Shown here in pieces: positions 10,863-24,509 of a DNA stretch of 46,694 nucleotides (within the stretch, counting starts at the first letter, position 1; the number at the start of each line of letters is the position of its first letter). Both the position numbers and the translations under genes were made by a program. The DNA comes from Patescibacteria group bacterium (lineage in GTDB: Bacteria > Patescibacteriota > Dojkabacteria > SC72), in assembly GCA_018818345.1 (NCBI GenBank), contig JAHISI010000016.1, positions 1-46,694 of the forward strand. Reading direction: 5' to 3'. The notes below the pieces were generated by a model, which saw only the letters and a list, made by a program, of their open reading frames with translations, did not search any database and had not been told where the DNA came from.

Positions 10863-11864
10863 ATGGAAGTAAAGAAAAGAATTTTAACGGGGGACAGACC
10901 TACAGGACAGTTGCACATAGGCCACTATTTTGGGTCTTTACAAAGCAGAGCGAAATTACAAGATGAATATGAGGAGTATATTGAGATAGCAAATATCCAA
11001 GCTTTGACAGATAATTTTGATAACCCGGGTAAGGTTAGAGAAAATATCGAAGAGCTTCTTTGTGATTACTATGCAGCGGGGATTGATTTTGAAAAGGCAA
11101 CAATTTTCATTCAGAGTGAAGTTCCTGCTATCCATGAGATTTTTATATATCTTGCTAACTTCGCTACAGTTCAACAGATACAGCATAATCCTACAATTAA
11201 AACGGAGATGGCTCAAAAAGGAATGGAAGTTTCTACTCCTTTGGGTTTTTTCATCTATCCTATACACCAGGCTGCAGATATATTGTGTGTTAATGCAGAC
11301 TTAGTGCCCGTAGGGAAGGATCAAGCTCCAATGATTGAGGATACGAGGGTTCTTGCTAGAAAATTTAACAATACGTACAAGACAAATCTTTTACATCAAC
11401 CACAAGCACTTTTTGGTGTTGAGGCAAATGTTCCAGGTATTGATGGAAATGCAAAGATGGGAAAGAGTTTAAATAATGGAATATATCTTGCAGATAGCGA
11501 AGAGGAATTAAGAAGGAAAGTATTTAAGGTATACACAGATCCTGCAAGAATCCATGCTACAGATCCAGGTAAGATCGAGGGGAATGTTGCGTTTACATAT
11601 ATGGATCTATTTGCAACTGATCTTGATGAGGTAGAGGCTATGAAAGAAAAGTATAGAAAAGGAGAAATCAAGGATGTAGAGGTTAAAGAAAGACTATTTG
11701 AGATTATGAATGCATATCTCACACCAATAAGAGAGAGAAGAAGAGAAGCAGAAGGTATGAAAGATGAGTTAATGCAGAAAGCGTTAAAAGGTAGTGAGAA
11801 GGTTTCTGGCATAGCAAGAGATATTGCTGATCAGATGAAAGAAGCGATGAAATTGAAGTTTTAA
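10863..11864 (+). CDS. trpS: Tryptophanyl-tRNA synthetase
   Basis: 333-aa class I aaRS with a HIGH motif (GQLHIGHY) and a KMSKS motif (KMGKS). The size and overall pattern are those of TrpRS. Confidence 0.95.
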   Translation: MEVKKRILTGDRPTGQLHIGHYFGSLQSRAKLQDEYEEYIEIANIQALTDNFDNPGKVRENIEELLCDYYAAGIDFEKATIFIQSEVPAIHEIFIYLANFATVQQIQHNPTIKTEMAQKGMEVSTPLGFFIYPIHQAADILCVNADLVPVGKDQAPMIEDTRVLARKFNNTYKTNLLHQPQALFGVEANVPGIDGNAKMGKSLNNGIYLADSEEELRRKVFKVYTDPARIHATDPGKIEGNVAFTYMDLFATDLDEVEAMKEKYRKGEIKDVEVKERLFEIMNAYLTPIRERRREAEGMKDELMQKALKGSEKVSGIARDIADQMKEAMKLKF

Positions 11865-11903: not shown

Positions 11904-12923
11904 ATGTTTGTAAAGAAATTAGGTATAGACCTAGGAACAGCTAACTCAGTTGTATTTGTACAAGGGGAGGGTATTGTCTTAACTGAACCAACAGTAGTAG
12001 CTATAGATGTTAACAACTTCACTGTCATAGCAGTTGGACTAGAAGCAAAGGAAATGATTGGTAAAACTCCAGACAATATTGTTGCCAAAAGACCTCTACG
12101 AAATGGAGTTATAGCAGATTCCCGAGTCACGGAAGCTTTACTAAGATATTTCTTTGATAAAGCATTGGGTAAGAGTAGATTTTTCAAACCAGATGTAGTC
12201 ATTAGTGTCCCTGCAGGTATTACTTCGGTAGAAGAAAGAGCAGTACTGAAAGCTGCTAATGCTGTTGGTGCTAGGAATGTCACATTGCTTCCAGAACCAT
12301 TGTTAGCTGCATTAGGGGCTGAAATGCCAATACAGACATCTTCTGGGAACATGATTATAAATATGGGTGGTGGTACTACCGAAGTCGCCGTTATATCCCT
12401 CGATGGAGTAGTGGAATATGAATCACTAAGAGTTGCAGGTGACGCTATAAATGAAGCCATAATCTCATATATGCGTAAAAAGAAAGGTCTTTTAATTGGA
12501 GAACAAACGGCAGAGAAGATAAAGATTAAGATAGGTTCGGCTCTAGAAGTTAAAGATCCAAGAGAAATGGAAGTAAGAGGAAGGGACGTTGGTGCTGGTA
12601 TGCCTAAATCTGTCGTAGTTAATTCAAATGATATCGCCAAGGCTGTTGAATGGCCATTAAGAAGTATCATTAAGAGCGTACAAGCAGTATTAGAAAAGAC
12701 GCCTCCTGAGCTCTCCGCGGACATCATAGACCGTGGTATGGTTATGAGTGGTGGAACAGCAATGCTCAGAAATCTAGACAAGCTATTCTCTCGTGCTACT
12801 GGAGTGCCAGCTCATGTTGCCGATGATCCATTGTTTTGTGTAGTAAAGGGTACTGGTATTGCCTTAGATCTCATAGAAGAAGGCTCTAGGAAGTTCTCCT
12901 TTAATCGAGATTTTAGAAGATAG
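11904..12923 (+). CDS. mreB: Actin-like rod-shape protein MreB, paralogue 1 (not linked to mreCD)
   Basis: GIDLGTANS phosphate-1 motif, NMGGGTTEVAV, MSGGTAMLRNLD. The ATG at 11904 is preceded by GGAG; the track ORF starts at a TTG at 11889. Confidence 0.9.
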   Translation: MFVKKLGIDLGTANSVVFVQGEGIVLTEPTVVAIDVNNFTVIAVGLEAKEMIGKTPDNIVAKRPLRNGVIADSRVTEALLRYFFDKALGKSRFFKPDVVISVPAGITSVEERAVLKAANAVGARNVTLLPEPLLAALGAEMPIQTSSGNMIINMGGGTTEVAVISLDGVVEYESLRVAGDAINEAIISYMRKKKGLLIGEQTAEKIKIKIGSALEVKDPREMEVRGRDVGAGMPKSVVVNSNDIAKAVEWPLRSIIKSVQAVLEKTPPELSADIIDRGMVMSGGTAMLRNLDKLFSRATGVPAHVADDPLFCVVKGTGIALDLIEEGSRKFSFNRDFRR

Positions 12924-12956
12924 TTTTAATCTTCTTTAACATATATAATATATCCC

Positions 12957-14117
12957 ATGGAAATATTTAATAGAAAAAAGAAGACGTTAAAGCTTGATGA
13001 AGTCACAAAATTGCTTAGTGAATTAAGAATTCCTACAGCATTGGTTTTTACCCCAATAAACTTAGAGACGGAGAAGAAGAAATTTTTTAATAGCGATACA
13101 TACAATCCAGTTTTTGAGTATAGGATTGTTAAGAATAATAACAAAGAGATATTAAAAAAGCTTTCCAATGTAAAAGAGATCGTTGATGTTGATCCTCGTA
13201 TTTCTGATTTCTACCTTCAGTTGATTGATTCTAAGAAAGAGGCTAGTGACCTTATGCATTCCGTTGGAAATAATGAAGAGATTACGGATATTTCTGTACA
13301 TAGGTATGGTAAACCAAGTGACAAGCTTTTTAGAAATGCAGCTAGAGTACTTAGAGGTAAATTAGACAGTTACAATGTAATAGATGAGGATACAATAAAG
13401 AAGGGTGACATTCTCTACTACGATGATATTGTTAAGGTTTTCAATGTTGTATTCCAGGAGTTGGGTTTAGATGGCTGGACAGTGAATAAGTCTATCAATA
13501 TTGCTAAGAATGGTGTGAAGATTGGTGTAAAAAGAAAAGAGATTCTAGTTGATGAGAATATTGAGAGAACCAAATTCAAATTAAGGAAGACGTTGATACA
13601 TGAAGTTGGAACTCATGCTTTGAGAGCGCACAATGGTTTGATGTGTGGGTTTGATGCTTTTAGTAATGCGAATCTTCCTGAGTATTTAGATGTAGAAGAG
13701 GGTTTAGCTACATGGAATGAGAATAGTATGGGTTTGCTTACTGAGAAGTGGTTGAAGAACAAAGCTGCATTGGCATGGGCTATATATTTGGGCGAGGATC
13801 TTTCATTTAGAGAGCTTTACAATGTTCTTTTAGCGGTGTTACCTAAGTACTCTGCTTTTGACGTTACATATCGTGTAAAGAGAGGTTTGGGTGATACTCA
13901 TGATAGGGGGATATATTCTAAGGATGTTGCATATTTTAGAGGTTTTAGAAAAGTTAAGAAGAAATTGGAAGAGAATCCTAGGTTGTATAACCAATTGTAT
14001 GCTGGAAAGATTACATTTAAACAGTGTGAATGGGTTGAGGATGGGTTATTACCTATGCCTACTAATGTTCCTAACAAGGATAAATGGTTAGAGATATTTG
14101 AGAAAGCGGGGATATAG
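12957..14117 (+). CDS. DUF1704 / MATCAP-like metallocarboxypeptidase (QEGLA-motif family)
   Basis: 386-aa ORF with HEVGTH (13599-13616) followed about 27 aa later by EEGLA (13695-13709). This is the metal-binding/QEGLA arrangement I associate with the DUF1704 family, which includes the eukaryotic tubulin detyrosinase MATCAP. It starts 33 nt after mreB paralogue 1. Confidence 0.7.
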   Translation: MEIFNRKKKTLKLDEVTKLLSELRIPTALVFTPINLETEKKKFFNSDTYNPVFEYRIVKNNNKEILKKLSNVKEIVDVDPRISDFYLQLIDSKKEASDLMHSVGNNEEITDISVHRYGKPSDKLFRNAARVLRGKLDSYNVIDEDTIKKGDILYYDDIVKVFNVVFQELGLDGWTVNKSINIAKNGVKIGVKRKEILVDENIERTKFKLRKTLIHEVGTHALRAHNGLMCGFDAFSNANLPEYLDVEEGLATWNENSMGLLTEKWLKNKAALAWAIYLGEDLSFRELYNVLLAVLPKYSAFDVTYRVKRGLGDTHDRGIYSKDVAYFRGFRKVKKKLEENPRLYNQLYAGKITFKQCEWVEDGLLPMPTNVPNKDKWLEIFEKAGI

Positions 14118-14168
14118 TCAGATCGAGTTTTTGTGCTATCATATATACATAATATTGTCCAAATAAAT

Positions 14169-15668
14169 ATGGATACAAATCCTTCATTAGAGAAAGAAAA
14201 TGCACAGTCTAAAGTCCCAATAAATCCTTATTTTCAACCCTCACAAAAAGATTTGGTAGCCACACCAGAAGTAACGGAAGAAGTAACCCCCGAAATAGTA
14301 GATTTACCCTCCGTCGAAACCGTAAGAATGCCAACATTGGATGATAAGTCTGAAGAACCATCGGCTTTAATTAATAGTTTGCCCAATATTGCTTTGGATC
14401 AAAAAAATAATGCATCATCTAATGTTAAAGATCCCAAAGATCTAGATTTAAAAATGTTGGGTTCAGATGAGCATGGATTGTACATTAAGATCCCAACGGA
14501 GATAAATGCAGAAGTAAGAGATGCTCAAAATGAATTCATTCCTGTTTTTATGGATGTACATAAAAAGTATGCCAATTATCCAGAATGGGAATATATGAAT
14601 GCACAAAATCCATTTGTTTTTGCTCCTGCAACCATTCGAATTATGTCTAATCAGTTAATACCCCAATTACTTAAGGAAACAACAACACTTTTTTCTAATG
14701 GAGTAGAGGAAAATACTGAGAGATCTATGCATTGGAAGGAATCAAATATTGAAGGGATATTAAATAAGCTACTTGCCTATGAATCATATCGATTAGAAAG
14801 AATCATGGCTCCAAGAGCAAGAGATCATATGAAAGAGGCCTTTCCTGGAGAAGAGGTAATCAAGGTTAAAGAGCTATGTACTGGAGCAGGTATGACTACT
14901 GCATTAATGTATGAAGCTTTAAAGGAAACAGGTAAGAAGGTAGAATTTCATTCTGCAGATAATTCACTTCAATCTGTTATTTGTGCCGCTACGTTATTAA
15001 CCTTACGAGGTATTCCAACAAGGATTGTGTTGGAAAGTGGTCAAAAAGAAAAGAACTTTGAGGGTGTAACAATATATTTTGAAACAGCTCAAGAATCTAT
15101 ACAAAAGAATCAAGATAATTACCACTTTGTATTTTCAGATAATGGAATAAATTATTTTGATGAGAAGCCTCACTTTGAGGTTGTAGATGAGATGGTAAAA
15201 AGAGTTAAACCAGGAGGACTTTTTCAAGATTGTACCTTGGATCCTGGAATGCAGGTTGATCTTTCAACAGTAAGCATGCTAGGGACAATCCTCTTCACAA
15301 AGAAGGAAAACTTTAAGAAAAAAGTTAGGTTAGGAGATGCGGAATATAGTATTAAGGAAAAAGATGGGATTTCTTTTATTGAGCAACTCTTTTCTCCTTC
15401 ATCTACTATGCAATACGAACTTTTGGCTGATGTTGGTAAAAAATTAGGAGTGAAAGCTTTCGCAGAATACTTGGGCGGAGCAAAGAAAGCGGGTGCAATA
15501 ACTAAAAAGTTAGCACCAAAAATCGCTCAAGATTTAAGAAAAACAGGAATGAAGATTTTAGAACTTACAGGCCTTAAGGGTTCATATTATCCAACATACG
15601 AAGATCGAAAAACTAGTTTAACAAGATTTTTTGAATTAAAACTGCCAAAGAACAATGATATGGGATAA
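14169..15668 (+). CDS. Hypothetical protein with acidic disordered N-terminus and class I SAM-methyltransferase-like C-terminal half
   Basis: Motif I-like VKELCTGAGM, an acidic loop (FHSADNS) and a post-III-like VKPGGLF. The ATG at 14169 is preferred over the GTG at 14133. The fold assignment is tentative. Confidence 0.5.
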   Translation: MDTNPSLEKENAQSKVPINPYFQPSQKDLVATPEVTEEVTPEIVDLPSVETVRMPTLDDKSEEPSALINSLPNIALDQKNNASSNVKDPKDLDLKMLGSDEHGLYIKIPTEINAEVRDAQNEFIPVFMDVHKKYANYPEWEYMNAQNPFVFAPATIRIMSNQLIPQLLKETTTLFSNGVEENTERSMHWKESNIEGILNKLLAYESYRLERIMAPRARDHMKEAFPGEEVIKVKELCTGAGMTTALMYEALKETGKKVEFHSADNSLQSVICAATLLTLRGIPTRIVLESGQKEKNFEGVTIYFETAQESIQKNQDNYHFVFSDNGINYFDEKPHFEVVDEMVKRVKPGGLFQDCTLDPGMQVDLSTVSMLGTILFTKKENFKKKVRLGDAEYSIKEKDGISFIEQLFSPSSTMQYELLADVGKKLGVKAFAEYLGGAKKAGAITKKLAPKIAQDLRKTGMKILELTGLKGSYYPTYEDRKTSLTRFFELKLPKNNDMG

Positions 15669-17946
15669 TACGTTATATTTGTTTGTTGTAATACTGGGAT
15701 TCACCTCCTTAATAGGGCCTTTAGTTACCTTCATAAAGGAGCCAAAAAATAAAGCATATTTCTTCTTAGGAGTCTTAGGAATAATCGCGGGTCCAGTCTG
15801 GGCTTTTTCTACAGTATCTTTTTTACTAACTGATACATTAAGTACAGCCAAACTTTGGGCAGACATTATATATCTTGCATCAATATCAATCGGACTTTTC
15901 CATTATATTTTCTCCACATACTATCTTCGTAGAAAGAAGATCAATTTGCTGTTTGCATTATTTGTAGTAGGTGGTTTTATATTTCTGCTTTATCAGATAT
16001 TTTTTACTAATAACTTTATTGAAAGAATTGTATTAGAGGGAAATAACTATATTGTGGTAGGGAAGGCATATATGGTCTGGATGGCTTGGTTAACAATCGT
16101 TTTCGCAGTTAATGTATATAAAACTTTAAGAGGATACAAAGAATTGTCATTTATTGAAAAAGAGCAGCAGAAATATTTAATTATTGGGAATGTATTAACT
16201 GTTGTTGGTTCTTTTCCGGCTAATATTATAGCTCCATATTTTGGTATTTATGAGTATATTTGGTTTGGTCCTGTTGTTTTTTCAATTGCAAACCTCATAA
16301 TATCGTATGGTCTAACGCAGACTAGATTCCAGCGATTGGGGGCAGTGATACGTGGGATTCTAAGAAGTCTTTCACTATATGTTATTCCCGCAGTGATATT
16401 TGTTGCTTCTCTGGAATTTCTTTTTCCACTGATTAAGCAGCTTTCAATTTCCAAGTTGTTATTTTATATCATTGCATTTTTGTTTGCCCTGGCTTTTAAA
16501 TTAATTATAGATTCGGTTGCAAATATTTTTCTCTCGGAAAAACAGATTTTAAGGAATAAAGGGGAGGGGTTTATCAAATTGTTGAACTTTGAACAAGAGC
16601 TTTCTGATATATGTAGTAAGACATTGAACTATATATGTCAAAATACCTCTGCAGATAAAGCTCAGATTTATCTTTATGATTCTGTAAATACAAAATCATA
16701 TTACTTTACTAATGGGGATTGGAAGATTGAAAATCTAGATAAGATTTTCACAGAGATACCTGTATATTGGAATAAAAAGACAACTGCGGAGGGAAAGTTT
16801 GAGGCTTTATCAAGATCTGAACTTGAATATTTGAGTAATAAGGATGCCATAGAGTATCGAGAATATTCTAATTTATTGTACTTATTAGAGTTAGCGAAGA
16901 TCCAGATAGTTTACCCAATAGTTTCAGGGAATGAATTGATAGGGGTGCTTTTCATACAGGATTTAGCTAATAACCAGATGTATAAAATAGATGAGCTTAA
17001 TCTTTGGGATCGTATATATAGTCAATTTCATATTTCTGTTAACAAAGCGTTACTATATCAGCAGCTTCAATCGTTGAACTCAACGCTCCAACAAAAAGTA
17101 GATATTCAAACTAAGGAGCTGCAAATAAAGATTTCTGAGCTACAAGAGGCTCGTAAAAAAGAAAACGATATGATCGATATCATGGGTCATGAACTTAGAA
17201 CACCTGCTACCATAGTTAAACTCAATGCTCAATTACTAGAGAAGTTTACAGGGGATATAGATAGCGATCCTGAAGCATACAAGAGATATGTAGATAGGAT
17301 AAAGATGGCAGTGGAGAATGAGATAAAACTTATTAATACATTGCTAAGTAGTGCTAAATTAGAAGGAAATAAGATAGTCATAGATCCTGAAGAGGTTGAT
17401 CTTAAGGAAGAAGTAGATATGGCTATACATGGCAATGAGAAGGATGCGAATGAAAAGAATCTTCCAATAATTAATAATATTAAATCAGATACTCCTCATG
17501 TATATGCAGACAAGGCTAGGGTGGTGGAGATATTAAATAACCTCATAAGTAATGCTGTTAAATATACGGAGAGTGGTAGCGTAACCATTGAGGATAGATA
17601 TGATGATAATTGGGTGGAGGTATCAATCATAGATACAGGGCATGGTATTAGTGCGGAGGATCTTAAAAAGCTTGGCCAGAAGTTCTACAGAGCTGGGAAT
17701 TACATAGATTCTAATGTTAAGGTTGGTGACAAGATGGAGATAGTAAGGCCTGGAGGTACGGGTTTAGGGCTCTATGTGACCTTCAACCTCATACGTAAGA
17801 TGGGTGGTGATGTTCGTGTAGAGAGTGAGGTAGGTAAGGGTAGTAAATTTATATTTATATTACCTAGATACAAAGCACAAGCCATTCATGATCATGATGG
17901 TGAGAGTAATAATATGTTTGAGAAGCTAGGACTTAAAACGCAGTAA
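15655..17946 (+). CDS. Multi-TM sensor histidine kinase (orphan)
   Basis: 763-aa ORF with about 7-8 N-terminal TM helices and a central GAF-like region. H-box MGHELRTP, N-box NLISNAVKYT, G1 DTGHGI, G2 GGTGLGL. The start overlaps the upstream stop by 14 nt. No response regulator lies in the window. Confidence 0.85.
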   Translation: MIWDNTLYLFVVILGFTSLIGPLVTFIKEPKNKAYFFLGVLGIIAGPVWAFSTVSFLLTDTLSTAKLWADIIYLASISIGLFHYIFSTYYLRRKKINLLFALFVVGGFIFLLYQIFFTNNFIERIVLEGNNYIVVGKAYMVWMAWLTIVFAVNVYKTLRGYKELSFIEKEQQKYLIIGNVLTVVGSFPANIIAPYFGIYEYIWFGPVVFSIANLIISYGLTQTRFQRLGAVIRGILRSLSLYVIPAVIFVASLEFLFPLIKQLSISKLLFYIIAFLFALAFKLIIDSVANIFLSEKQILRNKGEGFIKLLNFEQELSDICSKTLNYICQNTSADKAQIYLYDSVNTKSYYFTNGDWKIENLDKIFTEIPVYWNKKTTAEGKFEALSRSELEYLSNKDAIEYREYSNLLYLLELAKIQIVYPIVSGNELIGVLFIQDLANNQMYKIDELNLWDRIYSQFHISVNKALLYQQLQSLNSTLQQKVDIQTKELQIKISELQEARKKENDMIDIMGHELRTPATIVKLNAQLLEKFTGDIDSDPEAYKRYVDRIKMAVENEIKLINTLLSSAKLEGNKIVIDPEEVDLKEEVDMAIHGNEKDANEKNLPIINNIKSDTPHVYADKARVVEILNNLISNAVKYTESGSVTIEDRYDDNWVEVSIIDTGHGISAEDLKKLGQKFYRAGNYIDSNVKVGDKMEIVRPGGTGLGLYVTFNLIRKMGGDVRVESEVGKGSKFIFILPRYKAQAIHDHDGESNNMFEKLGLKTQ

Positions 17947-18886
17947 TAATAGCTTCTGCTATATTTACAGGTTCTCCCTCAATCTTAGTCTCATATGCCT
18001 TATATCCAGGATGTAAACTAATCTCTTGTATACATGGCTTCCCATTCATATACATAAAGTCTACAGCCATGAAATCAGCTTCTAGTACAGCTGTCATCCT
18101 CTCAGCAATCTCAGTAATCTCCTCATTAGGTTGGTTACACATCTCATATGTACTAGTTCTTTTATTAACAGTCATAAATCCTTCTCCTGCAATTCTCTTC
18201 CATCCACCAATAACCTTACCTAGTTTAACAAATATTCTGTAATCTTCACCTGCATCAGAAAATTCTTGTATAAAGAAATGAGAAAGATCCTGTCCATCAA
18301 GATTCTCTTGTTTGTAATCCTCATCTTTCTCTAATTTAAACACGTTCTTTTTTATCTTTTCCTTCCCATCAATCATCTCAGTTCTATTAGCACCAGTATA
18401 TTCTTTAATAATTAGGGGATAGTCCTTTAACATATCTCTATCCTTTAAATACTCACCATTAGTTTGGAAATATGTATTAAAGTAGGGGAGGTTATTTTTT
18501 GAACACAGCATTGCGAAGGCTATCTTATTGTAATATGGAAGATTCTTGATTGCTTTGGAATTTTGAATGATCACTTTTTTTTCTGGGTTGTCTCTATTAT
18601 ATTGATCAACGTAATCTATCATGAATCTCTTATATTGATACTCACGTTCATCGTCTAATGAATGACCCCGTAAAATCACGTTGCTGTACTCCGTTATGTC
18701 GTGCCCAGCTACCTTGATAACCGTGGAACCATTATGAAACAAGAATTCTATCTCATCGTTATATGCAAAATCGCAAGGTATATCCTTCTTTTTTAATTCT
18801 TCTACTAATCTTGCAGATCCAGTAGGTATTTCGCCCATGGTAGCTACTTGCACACGTTGTCTTTTATCTATAATGAGGTATTTCAT
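17933..18886 (-). CDS. RimK-like ATP-grasp amidoligase
   Basis: 317-aa ORF with ATP-grasp C-terminal signatures (EDYRIFVKLGKVIGGWKRI, MAVDFMYMNGKPCIQEISLHPG). Last gene of the minus-strand operon; its stop overlaps the kinase gene's 3' end (17933-17946). Confidence 0.7.
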   Translation of the reverse strand: MKYLIIDKRQRVQVATMGEIPTGSARLVEELKKKDIPCDFAYNDEIEFLFHNGSTVIKVAGHDITEYSNVILRGHSLDDEREYQYKRFMIDYVDQYNRDNPEKKVIIQNSKAIKNLPYYNKIAFAMLCSKNNLPYFNTYFQTNGEYLKDRDMLKDYPLIIKEYTGANRTEMIDGKEKIKKNVFKLEKDEDYKQENLDGQDLSHFFIQEFSDAGEDYRIFVKLGKVIGGWKRIAGEGFMTVNKRTSTYEMCNQPNEEITEIAERMTAVLEADFMAVDFMYMNGKPCIQEISLHPGYKAYETKIEGEPVNIAEAIITAF

Positions 18887-18887
18887 A

Positions 18888-20579
18888 TTAGAATTTTTTA
18901 ATTTTAGATATTAAACCTTTGAATTGATACTTTCTAATTGCTTTTACAAAATCTTTGTCTTCAAAGTACTTCTTTTCGACCATTAATAGATCGATTCTAT
19001 TAAATCCTAGTCCTGTTTCTCTTATCTCATCTGTATTTCGATGTTGTATGATCATTGCATCTAAAGAAGCGTTTACTTTAAGGCCTTCTATTGCCTTCCA
19101 TTTCTCTAGGCCTTTATTTATATCTAACCCATTGATTCTTATGCCTTCATCTTTGTATTCTCCGATAACGGCATCTTGTTTGAGGTACGATCCAAAGAGT
19201 GATTTCTTACGAAGTAGGGTAGGAATGTCTTGTGTACTATTACCTACAATTACTATCTGCTTTGTATTATTGCCTTTAACTAGCGCTTTTACATATTTCT
19301 CATATACTTCTTCTCTAGATTCTCCGATAACTGGATACACATTGAGATATGCTTCGGGCATGATATTGATTTCAATTATTCCGCCATTCTCTTGTGTAAG
19401 AGGTTTTGATATGTCCTGACAAAGGATATCGACACCTAACGTAAATGCATGGATAGAGGAAGCTATACTTTCTACGATTGCTTTAATCTCAGGTCCAACC
19501 TTTTCTGTAAAGTCTTCTGTGATACCACCTTGGCTCATACTTGCTACCTTTCTAACATAGATTTTCTGTTCTTTCTTAGGAATAGATTCTAATGTAAGTT
19601 TTTGGTCTTTGAGATATGAGAGTAGGGGTTCATCGATTATTATTGGTTTAAGTGTATGGGTTGGATTGGTTACATCCCTTCGAGGGTCAGTATTGGTTAC
19701 TTCTATTAATTCTTTTATTGTACTCTTGCCATTTCCTACAATGAAAGCAGGGATTCTCTTCGTGGTTATTTCTAGATGACCATCTATAACCAAGAGCCTG
19801 TAATCTTCCCCTTTGATTTGTTCTTGCATCATTATCTTGTTCTGCCATTCTTTCCCGATGTGTTTGCTACATGCCTTTTGTGCAAATTTGAATGCGTCCT
19901 TAGCTTCTTCTATAGTTTTGATACTTGTTACTACTCCATGTCCGCCAACTAAGCCAACAGGCTTAATGACTACGGGTTTTTCATATTGGCTCCAAATCTC
20001 TTCGAGTTGAGTAATATTATCTACTACTTGCCATTTAGGAATAGGGAGGCCCATACGCTCAATCATTAAATTACTTGCCCACTTATCTTTTTGTATTGTT
20101 TGAGCAATCTTCGAATCTTTACTAGAGGACACGGAATACAGGATCTCGGAGTGTTTTCCTACACCAATTGTGTAATGTCTATTGTATCCTTTCGAATATG
20201 TTACTCTCTGGTCTTGAACTAAAGTAGGCGTTGTTTCAAGTCCTAGCTTGTTTGCAATGTGTAGGATGGGGATGGTAACCATGGAGAGAAGTCTCTGTTT
20301 TATGACCTCTTCTAATGTATATTTTTTTGCTTCTTCATAGCTCATCTTTCCATTATCTAGAGCTACAATTATCTCTCCAAGTTCTCTCCAGAGAGATGTC
20401 ATTTGAGAACGTATGCTTAGGATATCATTTTCAAACTTATATTCTCTAATGAACAAAGGATGAAATCCCTTGAGCATTTCTAAATATTTTACAATCGCAT
20501 CTGATTTATGGACGTTGAGTTTAATAACTGAGAGATCTGATTCTAGATTGAGACCTTGTAGAACTTGCACGTTACTCAT
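18888..20579 (-). CDS. Cyanophycin-synthetase-like protein: CphA N-domain + ATP-grasp (G) domain + truncated degenerate Mur-ligase remnant
   Basis: 563 aa. PVVIKP, EDYRLLVIDG..RIPAFIVGNGKSTIKELIEVTNTDPRR and QDISKPL..GGIIEIN align closely with my recollection of CphA1 (PVVIKP, DHRVLVVNG..RIPAHVTGDGTSTITELIDKTNQDPNRG, SDISKPL..VIVEVN). Where CphA has the P-loop AVTGTNGKTTT, this protein has IVGNSTQD, and it ends about 115 aa later. Confidence 0.8.
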   Translation of the reverse strand: MSNVQVLQGLNLESDLSVIKLNVHKSDAIVKYLEMLKGFHPLFIREYKFENDILSIRSQMTSLWRELGEIIVALDNGKMSYEEAKKYTLEEVIKQRLLSMVTIPILHIANKLGLETTPTLVQDQRVTYSKGYNRHYTIGVGKHSEILYSVSSSKDSKIAQTIQKDKWASNLMIERMGLPIPKWQVVDNITQLEEIWSQYEKPVVIKPVGLVGGHGVVTSIKTIEEAKDAFKFAQKACSKHIGKEWQNKIMMQEQIKGEDYRLLVIDGHLEITTKRIPAFIVGNGKSTIKELIEVTNTDPRRDVTNPTHTLKPIIIDEPLLSYLKDQKLTLESIPKKEQKIYVRKVASMSQGGITEDFTEKVGPEIKAIVESIASSIHAFTLGVDILCQDISKPLTQENGGIIEINIMPEAYLNVYPVIGESREEVYEKYVKALVKGNNTKQIVIVGNSTQDIPTLLRKKSLFGSYLKQDAVIGEYKDEGIRINGLDINKGLEKWKAIEGLKVNASLDAMIIQHRNTDEIRETGLGFNRIDLLMVEKKYFEDKDFVKAIRKYQFKGLISKIKKF

Positions 20580-20589
20580 AATGGTAGAC

Positions 20590-21579
20590 TTATAATTTAT
20601 TTGTGTACTTATCTCTAATATATTCCATAATAGGGATGGCGACCTTCACCTTTTCACCCTTGTCAGCTTTGTAATGTAATCTTAATCCAGGGTTGTAGTT
20701 AATTTCATTAATTCCACACTTACCTGGTTTTGTTATATCTTCTGCAATGATATCTACACCCCCAAATTCTAAATCAAGAGCCTTAACGGCCTTCACAGCG
20801 AGCTCTTTGTAGTATGGATCCACGATGGATGCGCACTCTTCTGTAGTGCCTCCAGTGGTGAGGTTACAATTGTATCTGAGAGTTATAACTTGGCCTTCGT
20901 CAGGAATGGTATCTAATGTAAGGTCGGCATTTTTTAATCGTATTTCCACTTCGGAATCTATTGGAATTGGCTTGAGAATGAGTAGACTACGCTCTTTATT
21001 TGAAATATCAATTAATTCTCTTATAGTGTTCTTACTATTACCAATAACCACAGGAGCCTTCCTCCAGACTATTCCAACAACGTTTTCACCAACTACTAGG
21101 AAGCGATAGTTCTCTCCTTTTATGAATTCTTCTCCTAGTACTTTTACTTCTCCTTTTGATCTGTCTTTTTCTAAAGCTTCGTTAAAAGAAGAAATCACTT
21201 GCTCTTCAGTTTCTGGGAGTAGGGTAATGCCTTTTCCTCCGAGTTGTTGTGAGGGTTTTATTACAATGTCTTTGTACTTATTGAAGAACTTTATAGCATC
21301 GATAGCGCTACTCAAGCCTTCTTGCTTTGGGACATCTACACCATATGAACTTAATACCATGTTAGTTAAGTTTTTACGTTTTGAAATGGTAGCACTTGGG
21401 GAGGAGGTTAGTGGGGTGACTGTGTTTATAATGAACCAATGCTTATCTCCAACCTCAAACTTAGCAATTAGGCTTCTCACAACTATTGAATACTTGATAC
21501 TTAAGATATCTGCAGCTTCTACATAGTATGCTAAATGCACATTACCAGCCTCTTTCAAATATTCTTCGTATGTTTTCAT
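20590..21579 (-). CDS. Stand-alone cyanophycin-synthetase G-domain-like ATP-grasp ligase
   Basis: 329 aa. IVIKPSQQLGGKGI, ENYRFLVVGE, VVIGNSKNTIRELID, NLTTGGT and GGVDIIAEDITKP..INEINYNPGLRLH parallel the CphA ATP-grasp domain. The ATG overlaps the upstream stop (TAATG). Confidence 0.75.
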   Translation of the reverse strand: MKTYEEYLKEAGNVHLAYYVEAADILSIKYSIVVRSLIAKFEVGDKHWFIINTVTPLTSSPSATISKRKNLTNMVLSSYGVDVPKQEGLSSAIDAIKFFNKYKDIVIKPSQQLGGKGITLLPETEEQVISSFNEALEKDRSKGEVKVLGEEFIKGENYRFLVVGENVVGIVWRKAPVVIGNSKNTIRELIDISNKERSLLILKPIPIDSEVEIRLKNADLTLDTIPDEGQVITLRYNCNLTTGGTTEECASIVDPYYKELAVKAVKALDLEFGGVDIIAEDITKPGKCGINEINYNPGLRLHYKADKGEKVKVAIPIMEYIRDKYTNKL

Positions 21580-23036
21580 TATTTAAATGTTTTACTCGTA
21601 TCAATTAAGTAATCTCTTAAGTCATTTCTACCTAAGGTGACAGAATGTGTACTGTCTTCGGTTACAATCATCTCGAGGTCTCGAATCTCTCCTGAAATCT
21701 TTACTTTAACAATGATAACAGGTCTGATTACAATTTGCCCATCTTCAAAGATTTTTGCCAAACGTATAATATATTCGTCACTTGTACTATTCTTGCTGTA
21801 TTCATCGATATAGTCTTGAGCATCTGTAAAAGTATCAAAAGTTTTAGGACATTTGAGATAATCAAACTGTCTCATTGTTTCAAAATATCCCATTCGTGAT
21901 ACATAGCTTCTGGATATACGAGAAGTTATAGCTCCTGTATCTACAAATGCAGTGGTAAGTTCTCTGTCTTTGTTTTCATTCTTACTACCTTCTTTGTATG
22001 ATTTGTAGTAAAGGGTTATCTTCTCATTAATATTTATAACCTTTCTTCCACTAATAGCTTCAATGCTGTCTTCGACTTCACCGCCAAAGAGGTTTTTTGC
22101 TACTCTAATTCCATGCTTAATACTTTTTACAGAAAGCCCTTTGATTTTTTCTAATCTCCATTTTAATCCGGCTTGGTTGGCTACTTGTATACCAAGACCA
22201 GGTCTAGCATTTAGCTCAAATACAATTGGACCTTTGTCTGCATCTAATGCTATATCTACACCTACATATCCAAGCTTGCTTGCTTTTTGACATCTTACAG
22301 CTATATCCAATATCTTGTCCCAATCAGGTATCTGAACGCCTGAAAGTTTTTTGTTAATTTTTAGATCTTGAGTCGAATCGATCATCTCATATGTATCACT
22401 TAAGAACGATTTATTGTTCATGTGCATAGAGTAGGTGGTTATACCTGTTCCAATGTCTATACCGGTACATATCGCTCCTGAGTGGAGATTGGCGGTACCA
22501 TTAGATCTTCTAGTAGGTATTCTAATCATGGCCATAATCGGTACTAGGTTGAAGCAGATGATTCTTAAATCGGGTACGCCTTTGTAGGAGTATTGTTTTA
22601 GGAATGAATCTGTTCGGACTCTTTCTTCGATGATTGCGATGTCACTTCTTTCGCCCATTGAGAATCTTCCTTCAAGGATATTTTCAATGTGTAAAGTGAG
22701 ATCTTTCTTTGATAGTACCTCTCCGCCTGGTCTAATCCATGCTAATTCTCCTTTTTTACGACCATAGAGGACGAGGATTCCATTCCCACCAGTTCCTTGA
22801 TTAGGTTTAATTACGAAGCTTTTTGGTAATGACTCCCAATCTAAGAAGGCTAATTGCTTTCTGTTTTTTATTAACTTGTATACTTCAGAGGTTTGTATTC
22901 CTTCTCTAGCCAATAGCTTCTTTGTAGCTATCTTGTTGTCTGCTAGTGCCTTAGCTTTTGGATGGTTGTATGGACGAACATATTCCTGATTTCGTCTATT
23001 GAGCCCTAATACTTCGTTCATTCTACTTCTGAACAT
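21579..23036 (-). CDS. Alpha-L-glutamate-ligase-like ATP-grasp fused to C-terminal retropepsin-like (DTGA, DUF785/RimB-like) domain
   Basis: 485 aa. The N-terminus (GLNRRNQEYVRPYNHPKAKALADNKIATKKLL), VIKPNQGTGGNGI and VFELNARPGL resemble the RimK-related alpha-L-glutamate ligase-like family. The C-terminal region of about 160 aa carries FVDTGA (21930-21941) and a terminal LGRNDL..YLID, like DUF785 peptidases. Confidence 0.75.
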   Translation of the reverse strand: MFRSRMNEVLGLNRRNQEYVRPYNHPKAKALADNKIATKKLLAREGIQTSEVYKLIKNRKQLAFLDWESLPKSFVIKPNQGTGGNGILVLYGRKKGELAWIRPGGEVLSKKDLTLHIENILEGRFSMGERSDIAIIEERVRTDSFLKQYSYKGVPDLRIICFNLVPIMAMIRIPTRRSNGTANLHSGAICTGIDIGTGITTYSMHMNNKSFLSDTYEMIDSTQDLKINKKLSGVQIPDWDKILDIAVRCQKASKLGYVGVDIALDADKGPIVFELNARPGLGIQVANQAGLKWRLEKIKGLSVKSIKHGIRVAKNLFGGEVEDSIEAISGRKVININEKITLYYKSYKEGSKNENKDRELTTAFVDTGAITSRISRSYVSRMGYFETMRQFDYLKCPKTFDTFTDAQDYIDEYSKNSTSDEYIIRLAKIFEDGQIVIRPVIIVKVKISGEIRDLEMIVTEDSTHSVTLGRNDLRDYLIDTSKTFK

Positions 23037-23691
23037 TGTCTTTGTTTTGGCTAATTGATTTAAATCTGAACAGATCCTTCACTCTTAATCCTGCAAACTG
23101 GCCAATGAAGATGTTAAATACAATTAGAAGAGGAACAATCCAGAGGTTGTTTATGAAATACTCAGATACTGCATCTCTGGTTATGACAAACCATCCTAAT
23201 GCAGCTATGATTACGGTACTTGAAAGAATCATAACTGAGGACTTGAAGGATTTTTTAACATATTGCTTTATGAAGAAGTCTGAAAGTGCGGCAATTGAAA
23301 TTACTGCCAATCCGGAGATATTTGTCATGTTTTCTAAACCTAGACCAAATCTTTCTACAACAATGAAGAATACCACTAACATTATGGCTAGCAAACAATA
23401 GTTTACAGCTATCCTGGCGATGTAGTGCATACGTACTTTTCTAAGGATAGTGTATGAGAGTAGGGTAGTTAGTATGACGATTAGGGTTATGGCTAATCCA
23501 TATTTAAGTCCAGTATATGAATATGCAATTGCCAAGATTATTGGCGCATATATTCCATATGTTTTGGACCCTATGACGTATCTAGCTATACTTACAATGG
23601 TAGCTACGATCATTACAGCGAGTAACAATTCAAGTACCTGTTGAGGAACGCCAGTCGTAATCATCCATTGTGTAAAAGGTGTATAGGTCAT
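23023..23691 (-). CDS. Stand-alone 7-TM membrane protein (7TM module of the type usually fused to an inactive transglutaminase)
   Basis: 222 aa with seven hydrophobic helices countable by eye and a basic C-terminal tail. First gene of the operon, overlapping the next gene by 14 nt. Family assignment is from memory of the ATP-grasp-associated 7TM family and is tentative. No obvious SD. Confidence 0.6.
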   Translation of the reverse strand: MTYTPFTQWMITTGVPQQVLELLLAVMIVATIVSIARYVIGSKTYGIYAPIILAIAYSYTGLKYGLAITLIVILTTLLSYTILRKVRMHYIARIAVNYCLLAIMLVVFFIVVERFGLGLENMTNISGLAVISIAALSDFFIKQYVKKSFKSSVMILSSTVIIAALGWFVITRDAVSEYFINNLWIVPLLIVFNIFIGQFAGLRVKDLFRFKSISQNKDNVQK

Positions 23692-23731: not shown

Positions 23732-23761
23732 ATTATACTTAATTTGGGGTGTATTTGTCGA
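23732..23761 (-). promoter_or_regulatory. Candidate sigma70-type promoter of the 7TM/ATP-grasp operon
   Basis: On the minus strand: TCGACA, 18-nt spacer, TATAAT. The -10 lies about 40 nt upstream of the 7TM start codon. Confidence 0.45.
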
Positions 23762-23790: not shown

Positions 23791-23812
23791 AGGACTGACC
23801 TAGGTCAGTCCT
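23791..23812. repeat. Perfect 22-bp palindrome AGGACTGACCTAGGTCAGTCCT
   Basis: Verified self-complementary by hand. It lies about 30 nt upstream of the candidate -35 of the ATP-grasp operon. Confidence 0.9.
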
Positions 23813-23975: not shown

Positions 23976-23996
23976 AGGACTGACCTAGGTCTGACC
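23976..23996. repeat. Degenerate second copy of the palindrome (AGGACTGACCTAGGTCTGACC)
   Basis: It shares the first 16 nt with the 23791 copy, 185 nt away, and lies just downstream (minus sense) of the rplL terminator. Confidence 0.7.
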
Positions 23997-24011
23997 TTTT
24001 TGTTTATTAAT

Positions 24012-24037
24012 AAAAAAGAGCCATATTGCTATGGCTC
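24012..24037 (-). terminator. Intrinsic terminator after rplL
   Basis: Minus strand: GAGCCAT-AGCAAT-ATGGCTC followed by TTTTTT, about 28 nt after the rplL stop. Confidence 0.7.
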
Positions 24038-24064: not shown

Positions 24065-24469
24065 TTATTTCAATTCTACAGTTGCACCTGCTTCTTCAAA
24101 TTTTGCTTTGATAGCTTCTGCATCTTCCTTTTTGACACCTTCTTTGACTGTCTGAGGAGCTGCATCAACCATATCCTTAGCTTCTTTGAGACCAAGTTCT
24201 GTGATTTCTCTTACAACTTTGATAACAGAGATCTTCTGTGCGCCAGCGTCTTTAAGAACAATGTCAAACATTGTTTTCTCTTCGACTTCTTCTGCTGGTG
24301 CTGCTGCTACTCCTGCTACTGCAACTGGAGCTGCTGCACTTACTCCAAACTTGTCTTCCATAACTTTGACTAAGTCTGCGAGTTCAAGCACTGTCATCTT
24401 CTCTACTATTTCCATAACTTTCTTTGCGTTCTCAGAAAGCTCTGGTAATGTTTTTGCTTCGTCTGCCAT
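24065..24469 (-). CDS. rplL: 50S ribosomal protein L7/L12
   Basis: 134 aa with an Ala/Val-rich hinge ([17 protein letters not shown]). The conserved C-terminal domain reads [24 protein letters not shown]...EAGATVELK. Confidence 0.97.
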
Positions 24470-24509
24470 TTTTGTAGATATGTATAAATTAAATAACTAA
24501 ATTATGTCC

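Follow-up and report, generated by a model that had tools for sequence, protein, structure and literature searches.

A locus in a genome of Candidatus Dojkabacteria (WS6, Patescibacteria), a candidate phyla radiation (CPR) bacterium with a tiny genome, on balance appears to encode an expanded Rim/Rlo-type 'build-and-trim' system for a probably acidic (Glu/Asp-rich) non-ribosomal peptide chain, a reading in which we place somewhat better than even confidence. In the window (the whole stretch of 46,694 nucleotides that was analysed), a 7TM protein, an RloC-like ligase and a retropepsin domain are accompanied by a MATCAP-family metallocarboxypeptidase and by CphA2-like, CphA G-domain-like and RimK-like ATP-grasp ligases (Table 1). 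The families of these proteins could be assigned, catalytic motifs are intact, and the ligase, 7TM and peptidase genes are genetically coupled. An acidic chain is suggested by analogy with RimK, RloA and TMCP enzymes; how the ligases share the work, and what kind of acceptor would carry the chain, are likewise inferences.

Table 1. Features of the locus and its surroundings, with positions in the window
Feature	Positions	Strand	Basis or remark
trpS	10863-11864	+	
MreB paralogue 1	11904-12923	+	PF06723, 435 bits; neighbour gene, membership of the system unsupported
MATCAP/DUF1704-family metallocarboxypeptidase, 386 aa	12957-14117	+	PF08014, 98.9 bits (cutoff 27)
Class I methyltransferase-like protein, 499-511 aa	14133/14169-15668	+	Fold match; variable-spacer cargo
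7TM-HisKA-HATPase histidine kinase	15655-17946	+	HisKA_7TM, HisKA and HATPase_c domains; variable-spacer cargo
RimK-like ATP-grasp protein, 317 aa	17933-18886	-	PF08443, 34 bits
CphA2-like ligase, 563 aa	18888-20579	-	phmmer and AlphaFold fold match
CphA G-domain-like ATP-grasp ligase, 329 aa	20590-21579	-	NF010623 partial match, 204 bits
Whole 485-aa ligase gene (ATPgrasp_ST + retropepsin)	21579-23036	-	
Retropepsin domain of 485-aa ligase, residues ~330-485	21582-22049	-	Orthologue profile against PDB
RloC-like ATPgrasp_ST domain, residues 1-~329 of 485-aa protein	22050-23036	-	PF14397, 215 bits
7TM_transglut-type membrane protein	23023-23691	-	PF14402, 62 bits
Promoter-like site of ligase operon, TCGACA-18-TATAAT	23732-23761	-	Consensus match
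rplJ-rplL terminator hairpin, GAGCCATA-GCAA-TATGGCTC then TTTTTT	24012-24037	-	Sequence reading
Canonical MreB	32389-33444		Adjoins mreC and a PBP2-type transpeptidase gene

Gene content and domain assignments

All genes described in the initial annotation were recovered at their positions. The five minus-strand genes are linked by overlaps of 14 and 1 nt and by gaps of 10 and 1 nt, and this operon of a 7TM gene and four ligase genes converges, as previously described, on the plus-strand genes, the 3' ends of the RimK-like and histidine kinase genes overlapping by 14 nt (17933-17946). Profile searches placed the peptidase in PF08014 and the ligases among ATP-grasp types.

The 7TM protein covers just positions 311-505 of the 508-position RloB model NF052267, and by this match it is the 7TM part of RloB-type proteins, without their periplasmic inactive-transglutaminase domain. 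A cytoplasmic tail motif, GLRxx[DE]xFRF, was read from ten C-termini. The 14-nt overlap with the ligase gene suggests that the two are translationally coupled. The ATPgrasp_ST ligase scored 285.9 bits against TIGR02291 ('alpha-L-glutamate ligase-like'; cutoff 314). The earlier count of four ATP-grasp ligases stands, but it had overlooked a retropepsin-like domain on the 485-aa ligase. Single-sequence Pfam matches of this domain are weak; an eight-orthologue profile matched PDB entries 9g59 (E = 1.9e-7) and 9g58 (4e-6), both deposited under 'putative ATP-dependent zinc protease', and 2pma (1e-4). DTG lies at residues ~366-368 and is present in six of the eight orthologues, and GRNDLRDYLID lies close to the C-terminal end. 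On these profile matches the domain is assigned as an RloA/RimB-like retropepsin. Since it is fused to the ligase it should be cytoplasmic, and its presence leads us to regard the locus as an expanded variant of the Rlo/Rim systems. Its pI (5.4) is not basic, which counts against an Rlo-type model, as the substrate channel of RloA is reported to be positively charged.

The MATCAP-like protein has no signal peptide, and both its HEVGTH and EEGLA motifs are intact; H215-E216-x3-H220 and E247-E248-G-L-A align with the catalytic motifs of human MATCAP (PDB 7z5g, E = 5.8e-11). Against the TIGR02421 QEGLA family it scored 118 bits, under the family cutoff.

Among the other ligases, the 329-aa protein spans positions 166-471 of the cyanophycin synthetase model NF010623, with a score far under the cutoff; its best PDB matches were CphA1 (7lgn, 7.6e-30) and GshAB (3ln7), and in sequence it resembles the cyanophycin synthetase G domain and the GshAB ligase domain. 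The 563-aa protein is composed of an N domain, an ATP-grasp G domain and a truncated M-like domain. Its residues 148-535 matched CphA2 (8fxh; phmmer, E = 5e-45), and its AlphaFold model (pLDDT 86.6) found cyanophycin synthetase 2 (7ta5) as the best fold match over the full length (TM 0.69, E = 2.9e-39, 23% identity). The RimK-like protein, whose gene adjoins the CphA2-like gene in relatives too, fell below the cutoffs of TIGR00768 (52 bits) and MptN (50 bits). It has E-I-S at the usual E-x-N magnesium motif of ATP-grasp enzymes, which is intact in the other three ligases, and it may therefore be inactive.

Genetic coupling of MATCAP-like peptidases to ATP-grasp ligases

We compared the neighbourhoods of MATCAP-like genes across genomes and found that, of 13 informative metagenome loci of Dojkabacteria type, 12 have the orthologue adjoining the ligase operon; five further Dojkabacteria contigs also carry a MATCAP orthologue beside the operon. 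This clustering is kept down to 32% MATCAP identity with gene order rearranged. Two loci in particular (L097 and L142, MATCAP 31-32% identical) share no genes with the window other than MATCAP, the ligases, the 7TM gene and rplJL, and these are ordered differently. The 11.9-kb contig of L097 contains MATCAP, the RloC-like ligase and the 7TM gene; CphA-type genes were found neither on this contig nor near the fusion loci described below, and they are therefore accessories and not core components.

In other lineages, proteins of ~780 aa contain ATPgrasp_ST, a shortened DTG-less retropepsin-like region and MATCAP in one chain. The RloC-like domain of the window is 42% identical to the N-terminal domain of one such fusion (P0230), and the retropepsin domain is homologous to the DTG-less middle region (hhalign 97.5%, E = 6e-12). 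The fusion gene directly follows a PKD+7TM_transglut gene in L117, L121 and L137, and likewise in L120 at the contig start. As the fusions are single uninterrupted ORFs on several independent contigs, assembly or gene-calling artefacts are unlikely. The glutathionylspermidine synthetase/amidase of E. coli, in which an ATP-grasp-type ligase and a reversing hydrolase form a single polypeptide, provides a precedent, although there the hydrolase belongs to the CHAP amidases and acts on a small molecule.

Independently of the Dojkabacteria case, long MATCAP-like (QEGLA) proteins of Proteobacteria are encoded beside ATP-grasp ligases of yet another, third type. Aminobacter and Sinorhizobium carry an FGase-QEGLA-'glutathione synthetase' cluster, and on Photobacterium chromids a GshB-like gene is followed by QEGLA. 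In these likewise uncharacterised clusters, as in the window, a MATCAP-family gene adjoins an ATP-grasp ligase; however, the ligase is GshB-like, the QEGLA protein is long (~625 aa) and extended by an additional region at the N-terminus, and an N-formylglutamate amidohydrolase-family gene replaces the 7TM and retropepsin parts. Taken together with the fusions and the Dojkabacteria clustering, this pairing upholds the initial view of the MATCAP-like peptidase and the ATP-grasp ligases as members of a single system.

It might be argued that the MATCAP-like gene is unconnected with the convergent ligase operon and that conserved CPR gene order alone accounts for their proximity. Dojkabacteria do keep the gene order of the whole region, which runs from RuBisCO by way of proS, uvrA and the PEGA gene to trpS and beyond; MATCAP and the ligases lie on opposite strands with a variable spacer between them, and a rearrangement in L093 has parted them. 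In addition, ~150 MATCAP-like genes, mostly from DPANN archaea, are solitary, being ligase-free within up to 10 kb on each side, and the family is therefore not obligatorily ligase-linked. Against this already disfavoured explanation stand the covalent fusions with the same ligase family, the survival of the cluster in L097 and L142 without other synteny and the proteobacterial pairing, and we regard it as very improbable.

Neighbouring genes and candidate protein substrates

The initial annotation had tentatively suggested that the ligases write, and the MATCAP-like peptidase erases, C-terminal or branch tails on MreB paralogue 1, L7/L12 or L10, in the manner of the tubulin cycle or of RimK/RimB acting on S6. 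The RimK comparison was apt: the 7TM and ATPgrasp_ST/retropepsin genes hold the three Rlo domain types, Rlo is a relative of RimK/RimB, and the locus is homologous to a class of systems with a precedent for protein tailing. Moreover, trpS, mreB1 and MATCAP are closely spaced and kept in most Dojkabacteria loci, rplJ-rplL, in either of two orientations, adjoin the operon at its 7TM end, even in L097 and L142, and the 7TM proteins of L117, L137 and L142 terminate in EEE, an acceptor end of RimK type. Cell-shape defects have also been reported for P. aeruginosa rlo mutants (PMC11957051).

Nevertheless, the proposed substrates were not supported, and we consider this tailing of a specific protein quite unlikely. 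MreB paralogue 1, merely 42% identical to canonical MreB, has a basic C-terminus (FSFNRDFRR) in close relatives and unrelated ends (…KSVKNN, …EKKLS, …PTVSY) in others, and the gene is absent from the rearranged L097 and L142, from the inspected fusion loci (L080, L117, L121 and L137) and from the DPANN loci. Its adjacency is conserved no better than that of trpS, an obviously unrelated gene that accompanies it in most loci keeping MreB1 (some contigs end upstream). L10 (…SEKDA) and L7/L12 (…VELK) have unremarkable C-terminal ends. Although rplJ-rplL do lie upstream of the ligase operon, the immediate adjacency described previously was not found: a 373-nt spacer contains a terminator hairpin starting 28 nt past the rplL stop codon and a strong promoter-like site, which agrees with the consensus at 11 of 12 positions and whose end lies 41 nt ahead of the 7TM start codon. 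The hairpin and this site, a promoter by consensus match alone, therefore suggest that the ligase operon is its own transcription unit. Furthermore, a simple tail would need fewer than four different ligases and a membrane protein.

The methyltransferase-like gene and the histidine kinase, previously listed as parts of the system, sit in a spacer whose content varies between relatives, and neither is supported as a component. The former product has no Pfam match; the only folds that its AlphaFold model (pLDDT 76) matched were those of class I SAM methyltransferases, and its 12 homologues, all on Dojkabacteria-type contigs, start at M13. In L001, L002, L164 and L165, other genes take its place and the kinase is absent from its position. 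The kinase is possibly a regulator; an unrelated PAS/GAF kinase and a response regulator adjoin the fusion operon in L117.

Relation to known systems and the probable product

The RloABC system of P. aeruginosa (bioRxiv 10.1101/2025.03.18.643919; PMC11957051) likewise comprises a 7TM_transglut protein, a TIGR02291-like ATP-grasp ligase and a PF05618-type retropepsin, its 7TM and ligase genes are adjacent and overlapping, and its peptidase opposes the ligase and membrane protein, a triple rloA mutant being rescued by rloB or rloC loss. For comparison, a Legionella adelaidensis plasmid offers a canonical copy of an RloABC-type operon. Besides lacking the periplasmic domain of the 7TM protein, the Dojkabacteria locus differs in that its retropepsin is ligase-fused whereas that of RloABC is secreted, in its additional MATCAP-family peptidase and three more ATP-grasp ligases, and in its CPR host, 96% of RloB hits being in Proteobacteria (PMC11957051). 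In S6 glutamylation by RimK/RimB (and RimA), a cytoplasmic retropepsin similarly trims the product of an ATP-grasp alpha-L-glutamate ligase (PMC11957051); however, none of the four Dojkabacteria ligases reaches the RimK family cutoff (TIGR00768, 38-68 bits against 143), and RimK has no 7TM partner. The tubulin tail cycle (TTL/TTLL against MATCAP/TMCP, VASH and CCP) shares the peptidase family PF08014, with HExxxH and EEGLA, and the use of ATP-grasp ligases as opposing enzymes, and TMCPs also shorten polyglutamate chains (PMC10499314). In contrast, the locus ligases are not of the TTL family (no PF03133 match in the Pfam search), neither a tubulin nor a cytoskeletal substrate with an acidic tail is apparent, and the Dojkabacteria system includes a membrane protein and a retropepsin.

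No substrate or product has been reported for any prokaryotic MATCAP/DUF1704 protein or any RloBC system. RimK makes poly-alpha-Glu, RimB and RloA cleave poly-Glu (PMC11957051), and MATCAP/TMCP enzymes take off C-terminal Glu or Tyr (PMC10499314). In the proposed build-and-trim system, the RloC-like ligase would act at the cytoplasmic face of the 7TM protein, its presumed translationally coupled partner, and the CphA2-like, CphA G-domain-like and RimK-like enzymes would add or polymerise further residues. The fused retropepsin domain would make internal cuts, the MATCAP-like peptidase would strip residues from the C-terminal end, and both together may set chain length, recycle amino acids or stop toxic accumulation. 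We favour a chain that is free, or linked to membrane or envelope, over tails on MreB or ribosomal proteins; the synthesis of a free or membrane-associated peptide, initially offered as the alternative, is at least as likely as protein tailing.

A cyanophycin-like storage polymer, in which the CphA2-like enzyme would polymerise dipeptides from the other ligases and MATCAP and the retropepsin would mobilise the polymer, is unlikely; such a nitrogen or amino-acid reserve would benefit an auxotrophic CPR cell. Over its full length, the 563-aa protein is organised like CphA2 (7ta5, 8fxh), with N, G and truncated-M domains, an orthologue is named 'Cyanophycin synthetase [candidate division WS6]', and the 329-aa protein is a CphA-type G domain. 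CphA2 requires a dipeptide substrate, and solved CphA2 structures carry beta-Asp-Arg; this need would account for the extra ligases. However, identity to CphA2 is only 22-23%, NCBIfam scores are 234-247 against cyanophycin cutoffs of 850-877, neither cyanophycinase (S51) nor isoaspartyl dipeptidase was found in the locus, the CphA genes are accessories, and a storage role would leave the 7TM partner unexplained. The 563-aa protein also differs from CphA2 in being encoded in an operon with three other ATP-grasp ligases and a 7TM protein. CphA-type enzymes also make Asp-Arg polymers or dipeptides, and the chemistry of the build-and-trim chain could accordingly differ from acidic.

Quite improbable, in our judgement, is a product built with one residue per ligase and turned over by the peptidases, whether a short, defined peptide or a peptide that decorates a small molecule or a glycolipid of the envelope. 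Such a product could be an osmolyte like glutathione or NAGGN, the alpha-glutamyl tail of a cofactor, or a wall polymer resembling teichuronopeptide. The ligases do score against the GshAB, N-acetylglutaminylglutamine synthetase, MptN and CofF models, but all far under the cutoffs. RloB is an osmotic-stress-tolerance protein in NCBI naming, ATPgrasp_ST is 'sugar-transfer associated' in Pfam, and the proteobacterial QEGLA proteins stand beside FGase and 'glutathione synthetase'-type ligases; on the other hand, retropepsins of the RloA kind need long substrates (at least 8 Glu for RloA; PMC11957051), and no glycosyltransferase was found among the scanned gene products of the window locus. The fusion operon also encodes a DUF6938 protein, weakly similar to GT-B glycosyltransferases, and an EamA transporter, and this glycosyltransferase-like gene hints at a sugar- or lipid-linked product, outside the main build-and-trim model. 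That model also finds a weak hint in pI values: the ligase domain (9.8), MATCAP (9.0) and the CphA2-like protein (8.8) are basic, the median over the window being 6.4.

Domain composition of the convergent operons

The ORF map and profile searches recovered every gene listed in the initial annotation. On the plus strand, trpS is followed by an extra MreB paralogue (MreB1), a PF08014 protein resembling MATCAP, a protein without a family hit and a 7TM histidine kinase; converging on these with a 3' overlap of 14 nt, the minus strand carries the genes for a 7TM_transglut membrane protein and four tightly packed ATP-grasp proteins (485, 329, 563 and 317 aa, in that order). The core genes of the system amount to roughly 7 kb. 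The host is Candidatus Dojkabacteria (candidate division WS6, Patescibacteria/CPR); MATCAP-like homologues with 64–94% identity bear Dojkabacteria or WS6 names, the 563-aa ligase shares 94% identity with a protein entered as 'Cyanophycin synthetase [candidate division WS6 bacterium GW2011_GWC2_36_7]', and the 511-aa protein without a family hit matches 'hypothetical protein KKA50_00530 [Patescibacteria group bacterium]' at 100% identity.

The MATCAP-like protein matched PF08014 (DUF1704) at 98.9 bits (cutoff 27; profile positions 2–338 of 365) and aligned to human MATCAP (PDB 7z5g, E 5.8e-11), its HEVGTH (215–220) and EEGLA (247–251) motifs falling on the HEIGTH and EEGLA of 7z5g; the 7z6s chain reads HQIGTH at the HEIGTH position. 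Across 60 homologues, HExxxH kept its H, E and H without exception, and EEGLA its Gly and second Glu; the other EEGLA residues (first Glu, Leu and Ala) were at least 90% conserved. A signal peptide was looked for in this protein and none was found. MATCAP/TMCP enzymes take off a Tyr or Glu at the C-terminus and also shorten chains of polyglutamate (PMC10499314). The parallel with the tubulin tail cycle drawn in the initial annotation stood for the peptidase family (PF08014) and fell for the ligases, none of the four matching PF03133 (TTL family) at E ≤ 0.01; the likeness is confined to the peptidase family and the ATP-grasp nature of the ligases. To our knowledge, tubulin is absent from this type of organism.

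The 485-aa ligase clearly matched PF14397 (ATPgrasp_ST, 215 bits) and reached 285.9 bits, just below the curated cutoff of 314.2, against TIGR02291 ('alpha-L-glutamate ligase-like'; model positions 8–291 of 317), which we take to be the RloC family. Against TIGR02068/NF010623, the 563-aa and 329-aa proteins scored 234–247 and 201–204 bits, respectively, under the cutoffs of 850–877. The 563-aa ligase resembles CphA2 from end to end (phmmer E 5e-45 against 8fxh), its AlphaFold model (pLDDT 86.6) aligned with CphA2 7ta5 over 585 columns (TM 0.69/0.66, E 2.9e-39), and only this protein combines the N, ATP-grasp G and M domains (M being Mur-ligase-like and truncated in CphA2); the 329-aa ligase is a lone CphA/GshAB-type ATP-grasp G domain. 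The scanned gene products of the locus included no S51 peptidase (cyanophycinase). The best TIGR00768 scores of the ligases were 38–68 bits (cutoff 143.4), and those for PRK10446 were at most 31 bits (cutoff 331). In the 317-aa RimK-like protein, Q-E-I-S-L-H-P-G replaces the magnesium-binding E-x-N of ATP-grasp enzymes, and the E-I-S substitution recurs in the closest orthologues compared; judged by this substitution, the protein may be a non-catalytic or atypical subunit.

Four ligases had initially been set against a single peptidase. The ligases were confirmed, and a second peptidase, overlooked at that stage, lies in the C-terminal extension (~155 residues) of the 485-aa ligase, which contains FVDTGA and, close to its end, GRNDLRDYLID. 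Single-sequence Pfam searches of the extension gave only sub-threshold matches to retropepsin families; its identity was settled by comparing an orthologue profile with PDB sequences and by hhalign. The profile of eight orthologous extensions matched PDB 9g59 (E 1.9e-7), 9g58 (4e-6) and 2pma (1e-4), with the DTG and C-terminal motifs lined up in these alignments, and DTG was retained in six of the eight. Entries 9g59 and 9g58 are deposited under the title 'putative ATP-dependent zinc protease', a class that we take to be the PF05618/RloA-RimB retropepsin. The 222-aa membrane protein matches RloB in its 7TM half alone (PF14402, 62 bits; NF052267 [RloB], positions 311–505 of 508, 42.9 bits, cutoff 900), and its gene overlaps the ligase-retropepsin gene by 14 nt at the head of one minus-strand operon. 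With the retropepsin domain in the ligase extension, the first two operon genes therefore hold all three Rlo domain types.

As in the Rlo system, of which a Legionella plasmid carries the canonical three-gene version, the three functions thus share one operon. However, the locus fails strict Rlo membership on two features. RloB is fused to a periplasmic inactive transglutaminase, whereas this N-terminal domain is absent from the 222-aa protein; and RloA is separate and secreted with a signal peptide, whereas the retropepsin of the locus is fused to a cytoplasmic ligase.

Linkage of the MATCAP-like peptidase to ATP-grasp ligases

Conservation among close Dojkabacteria proves little, since the whole region is syntenic from RuBisCO–proS–uvrA–PEGA gene–trpS onwards. 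The link between the MATCAP-like peptidase and the ligases, first proposed from gene order, is shown by three independent lines: fusions, neighbourhoods and a pairing in Proteobacteria. A search of 1.84 billion representative proteins returned 1,633 relatives, among which were ~780-aa proteins with an N-terminal ATPgrasp_ST and a C-terminal MATCAP domain. The ligase domain of these fusions is 42% identical to that of the window; the stretch between their two domains is homologous to the retropepsin domain (hhalign 97.5%, E 6e-12) but shortened and devoid of DTG. The fusion gene lies immediately 3' of a PKD+7TM_transglut gene in the metagenome loci L117, L121 and L137 and, at a contig start, L120; it stands alone in a Peribacteria genome (L080).

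Among Dojkabacteria-type metagenome loci with enough flanking DNA, MATCAP adjoins ligase genes in 12 of 13. Two of the fetched loci, L097 and L142, are deep branches whose MATCAP proteins are 31–32% identical to that of the window, that of L142 being identical to a protein named Candidatus Dojkabacteria. Of the genes in these two loci, only those for MATCAP, the 7TM protein and the ligases, together with rplJ-rplL, had homologues anywhere in the 46.7-kb window; their order was changed, and nothing else was syntenic. The gene cluster is kept across the class down to ~32% protein identity. In Aminobacter and Sinorhizobium replicons, genes for N-formylglutamate amidohydrolase (FGase), a 625-aa QEGLA protein (the long form of the MATCAP-like family) and a 'glutathione synthetase' ATP-grasp enzyme stand in a row; in Photobacterium, a GshB-like gene overlaps the QEGLA gene and the gene order differs.

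Coordinates of features in the window and in related loci
Feature	Locus	Position (strand)	Remarks
RuBisCO large-subunit gene upstream of proS	L001	171-1541	
	L002	78-1463	
	L164	240-1616	
	L165	5-1381	
Counterpart ORF	window	2948-4351	
MreB1	window	11904-12923 (+)	
MATCAP-like gene	window	12957-14117 (+)	
Variable spacer	window	14118-17932	methyltransferase-like gene, 7TM kinase
	L001	11252-13024	3 small ORFs
	L002	11153-11836	HD protein
	L164	11193-11776	2 small ORFs
	L165	11530-13510	radical SAM/SPASM gene, possible Peptidase_MA_2 gene, others
RimK-like gene	window	17933-18886 (-)	317 aa
22-nt palindrome and near copy	window	23791-23812; 23976-23997	rplL-7TM spacer
rplJ-rplL beside 7TM end	window	24065-25031	
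	L097	9949-10897	
	L142	16418-17518	
Canonical MreB	window	32389-33444	
7TM protein beside fusion gene	L117	7137-8666	
	L137	7133-8662	
7TM protein	L142	15563-16288	
DUF6938 gene and EamA transporter	L117	11103-13616	
	L137	11081-13512	
FGase, ~625-aa QEGLA, 'glutathione synthetase' (proteobacterial chromid/plasmid)	L166	5514-9258	
	L167	1623-9237	
	L168	4212-7212	
Homologues of window genes beyond MATCAP	L093	11129-20513	

Two observations run counter to this linkage. First, ~150 MATCAP genes were solitary amid housekeeping genes, mostly in Woesearchaeota/Nanoarchaeota. A genome scan (L004–L083) used a query alignment built from and led by non-Dojkabacteria sequences, and of the best 80 loci that were taken, 78 came from MAGs of archaea, for the most part under the labels Woesearchaeota/Nanoarchaeota (DPANN). 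In 18/80 of these loci MATCAP is followed by a gene for PTH2 peptidyl-tRNA hydrolase, the other neighbours being housekeeping genes; the DPANN loci serve as a negative control and are uninformative on bacterial contexts. Second, the relative locus L093 has a rearrangement breakpoint directly after MATCAP, which stays with trpS-mreB1. Beyond it the contig continues with homologues of window genes at 36.8–46.2 kb, so that the ligase operon, ribosomal genes and mreBCD block lie elsewhere. A rough neighbour-joining tree of the MATCAP domains was star-like and showed only that the Dojkabacteria proteins form one clade. It is noteworthy that MATCAP-like genes are common to CPR and DPANN organisms.

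A prokaryotic MATCAP/ATP-grasp pairing was not described in the literature searched (DUF1704, QEGLA, bacterial MATCAP), although the survey of Iyer et al. (2009) may contain it. The recurrence of MATCAP/DUF1704 proteins as ATP-grasp amidoligase partners, even fused to them, gives these prokaryotic proteins, whose literature is nearly empty, a concrete and testable context, and suggests that the tubulin-code logic in which a ligase writes and MATCAP erases has a prokaryotic counterpart.

A putative build-and-trim system and its acceptor

In published work, S6 is extended by RimK, an enzyme that produces poly-alpha-glutamate; polyglutamate is cleaved by RimB and by RloA, the latter requiring at least eight Glu, and a triple rloA mutant is rescued when rloB or rloC is deleted (PMC11957051). 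The locus has domains in common with RimK/RimB and RloABC and, by analogy, may work alike, but it adds the MATCAP peptidase and three ligases, among them the CphA2-like enzyme. We infer from these families a system that would build and trim a peptide chain. The RloC-like ligase, probably coupled in translation to the 7TM protein, would act at that protein, and the three other ATP-grasp enzymes would help to assemble the chain, probably one rich in Glu/Asp; the fused retropepsin would cut it internally, and MATCAP would trim it from the C-terminus. The loss of DTG from the retropepsin of the fusion proteins, to which MATCAP is appended, fits MATCAP taking over the peptidase role.

A Glu/Tyr-type carboxypeptidase family accompanies an intact retropepsin in some lineages and a degenerate one in others, as would be expected if RloBC made a peptide chain, plausibly resembling polyglutamate, whose C-terminus is free. 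The fusion operon continues after the 7TM and fusion genes with genes for an EamA transporter and for a DUF6938 protein that shows weak similarity to glycosyltransferases of the GT-B type (NCBIfam E 2e-7; PDB E 0.011); these point towards the envelope. A PAS/GAF histidine kinase and a response regulator are encoded upstream in L117.

A chain that is free or linked to the membrane or envelope seems likelier than one added to MreB or to a ribosomal protein, the substrates first suggested. MreB1 shares no more than 42% identity with canonical MreB, which is encoded 20 kb away together with mreC and a gene for a PBP2-type transpeptidase. MreB1 travels with trpS and is absent from the deep branches L097 and L142 and from the fusion loci L117, L121 and L137; its C-terminus (…FSFNRDFRR) is basic and entirely different in more distant relatives. 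MreB1 was found to have neither a conserved or acidic C-terminal tail nor a co-occurrence with the system beyond simple synteny, and the C-termini of L10 and L7/L12 are ordinary; neither suggestion was upheld.

RimK extends the Glu-Glu C-terminal end of S6. The 7TM proteins beside the fusion genes in L117 and L137 terminate in …GEEE and that of L142 in …EELEEE, so that an …EEE end was present in three of the ten lineages examined, while those of the window clade terminate in …NVQK or similar. By their resemblance to the S6 end, these tails could themselves be acceptors in some lineages. That the system as a whole writes a non-ribosomal tail on a protein, a prokaryotic 'tail code' with, in its most specific version, the cytoplasmic C-terminal tail of the 7TM protein as acceptor, seems improbable to us. 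Tail length, set by four ligases against the retropepsin and the MATCAP carboxypeptidase, would then control a membrane function; MreB1 or the L10/L12 stalk as the acceptor of such a tail is less likely still. With either acceptor, the writer/eraser pair of ATP-grasp enzymes and MATCAP on eukaryotic tubulin would be an inheritance from prokaryotic systems.

That a CPR bacterium with a very small genome retains a ~7 kb core for this system, and that the cluster is kept class-wide at such low identity, speaks for an important part in the physiology or the envelope of these uncultured bacteria. The locus is also relevant to the Rlo system of P. aeruginosa, through which cell shape, biofilm formation, osmotic tolerance and sensitivity to beta-lactams are affected.

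Genes and sites bordering the system

An oddity is the lasting adjacency of rplJ-rplL to the operon's 7TM end, co-directional in the window clade and still present, though divergent, in L097 and L142. In the window, a clear terminator hairpin lies downstream of rplL, and an 11/12 promoter-like site upstream of the 7TM gene. The spacer between rplL and the 7TM gene contains a perfect 22-nt palindrome, AGGACTGACCTAGGTCAGTCCT, ~30 nt upstream of the promoter-like site (~0.01 matches expected by chance), and a near copy with two mismatches. The palindrome core GACCTAGGTC was absent from all 165 fetched loci, so that the palindrome was dropped as a regulatory signature; it may be a strain-specific operator-like site.

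MreB1, which lacks the canonical N-terminal extension, is basic (pI 8.5), as are MATCAP, the RloC-like domain and the CphA2-like protein, and canonical MreB has a pI of 5.0; isoelectric points give only a weak hint of substrate charge. The variable spacer that separates MATCAP from the RimK-like gene is a hot spot of gene turnover, and the methyltransferase-like and kinase genes that it holds in the window are not part of the system. The product of the former, the 511-aa protein, has just 12 homologues, all of one clade, and was not identified by Pfam, NCBIfam or PDB sequence searches. In a fold search, its AlphaFold model (pLDDT 76) matched only class I SAM methyltransferases, in agreement with its original description as methyltransferase-like.
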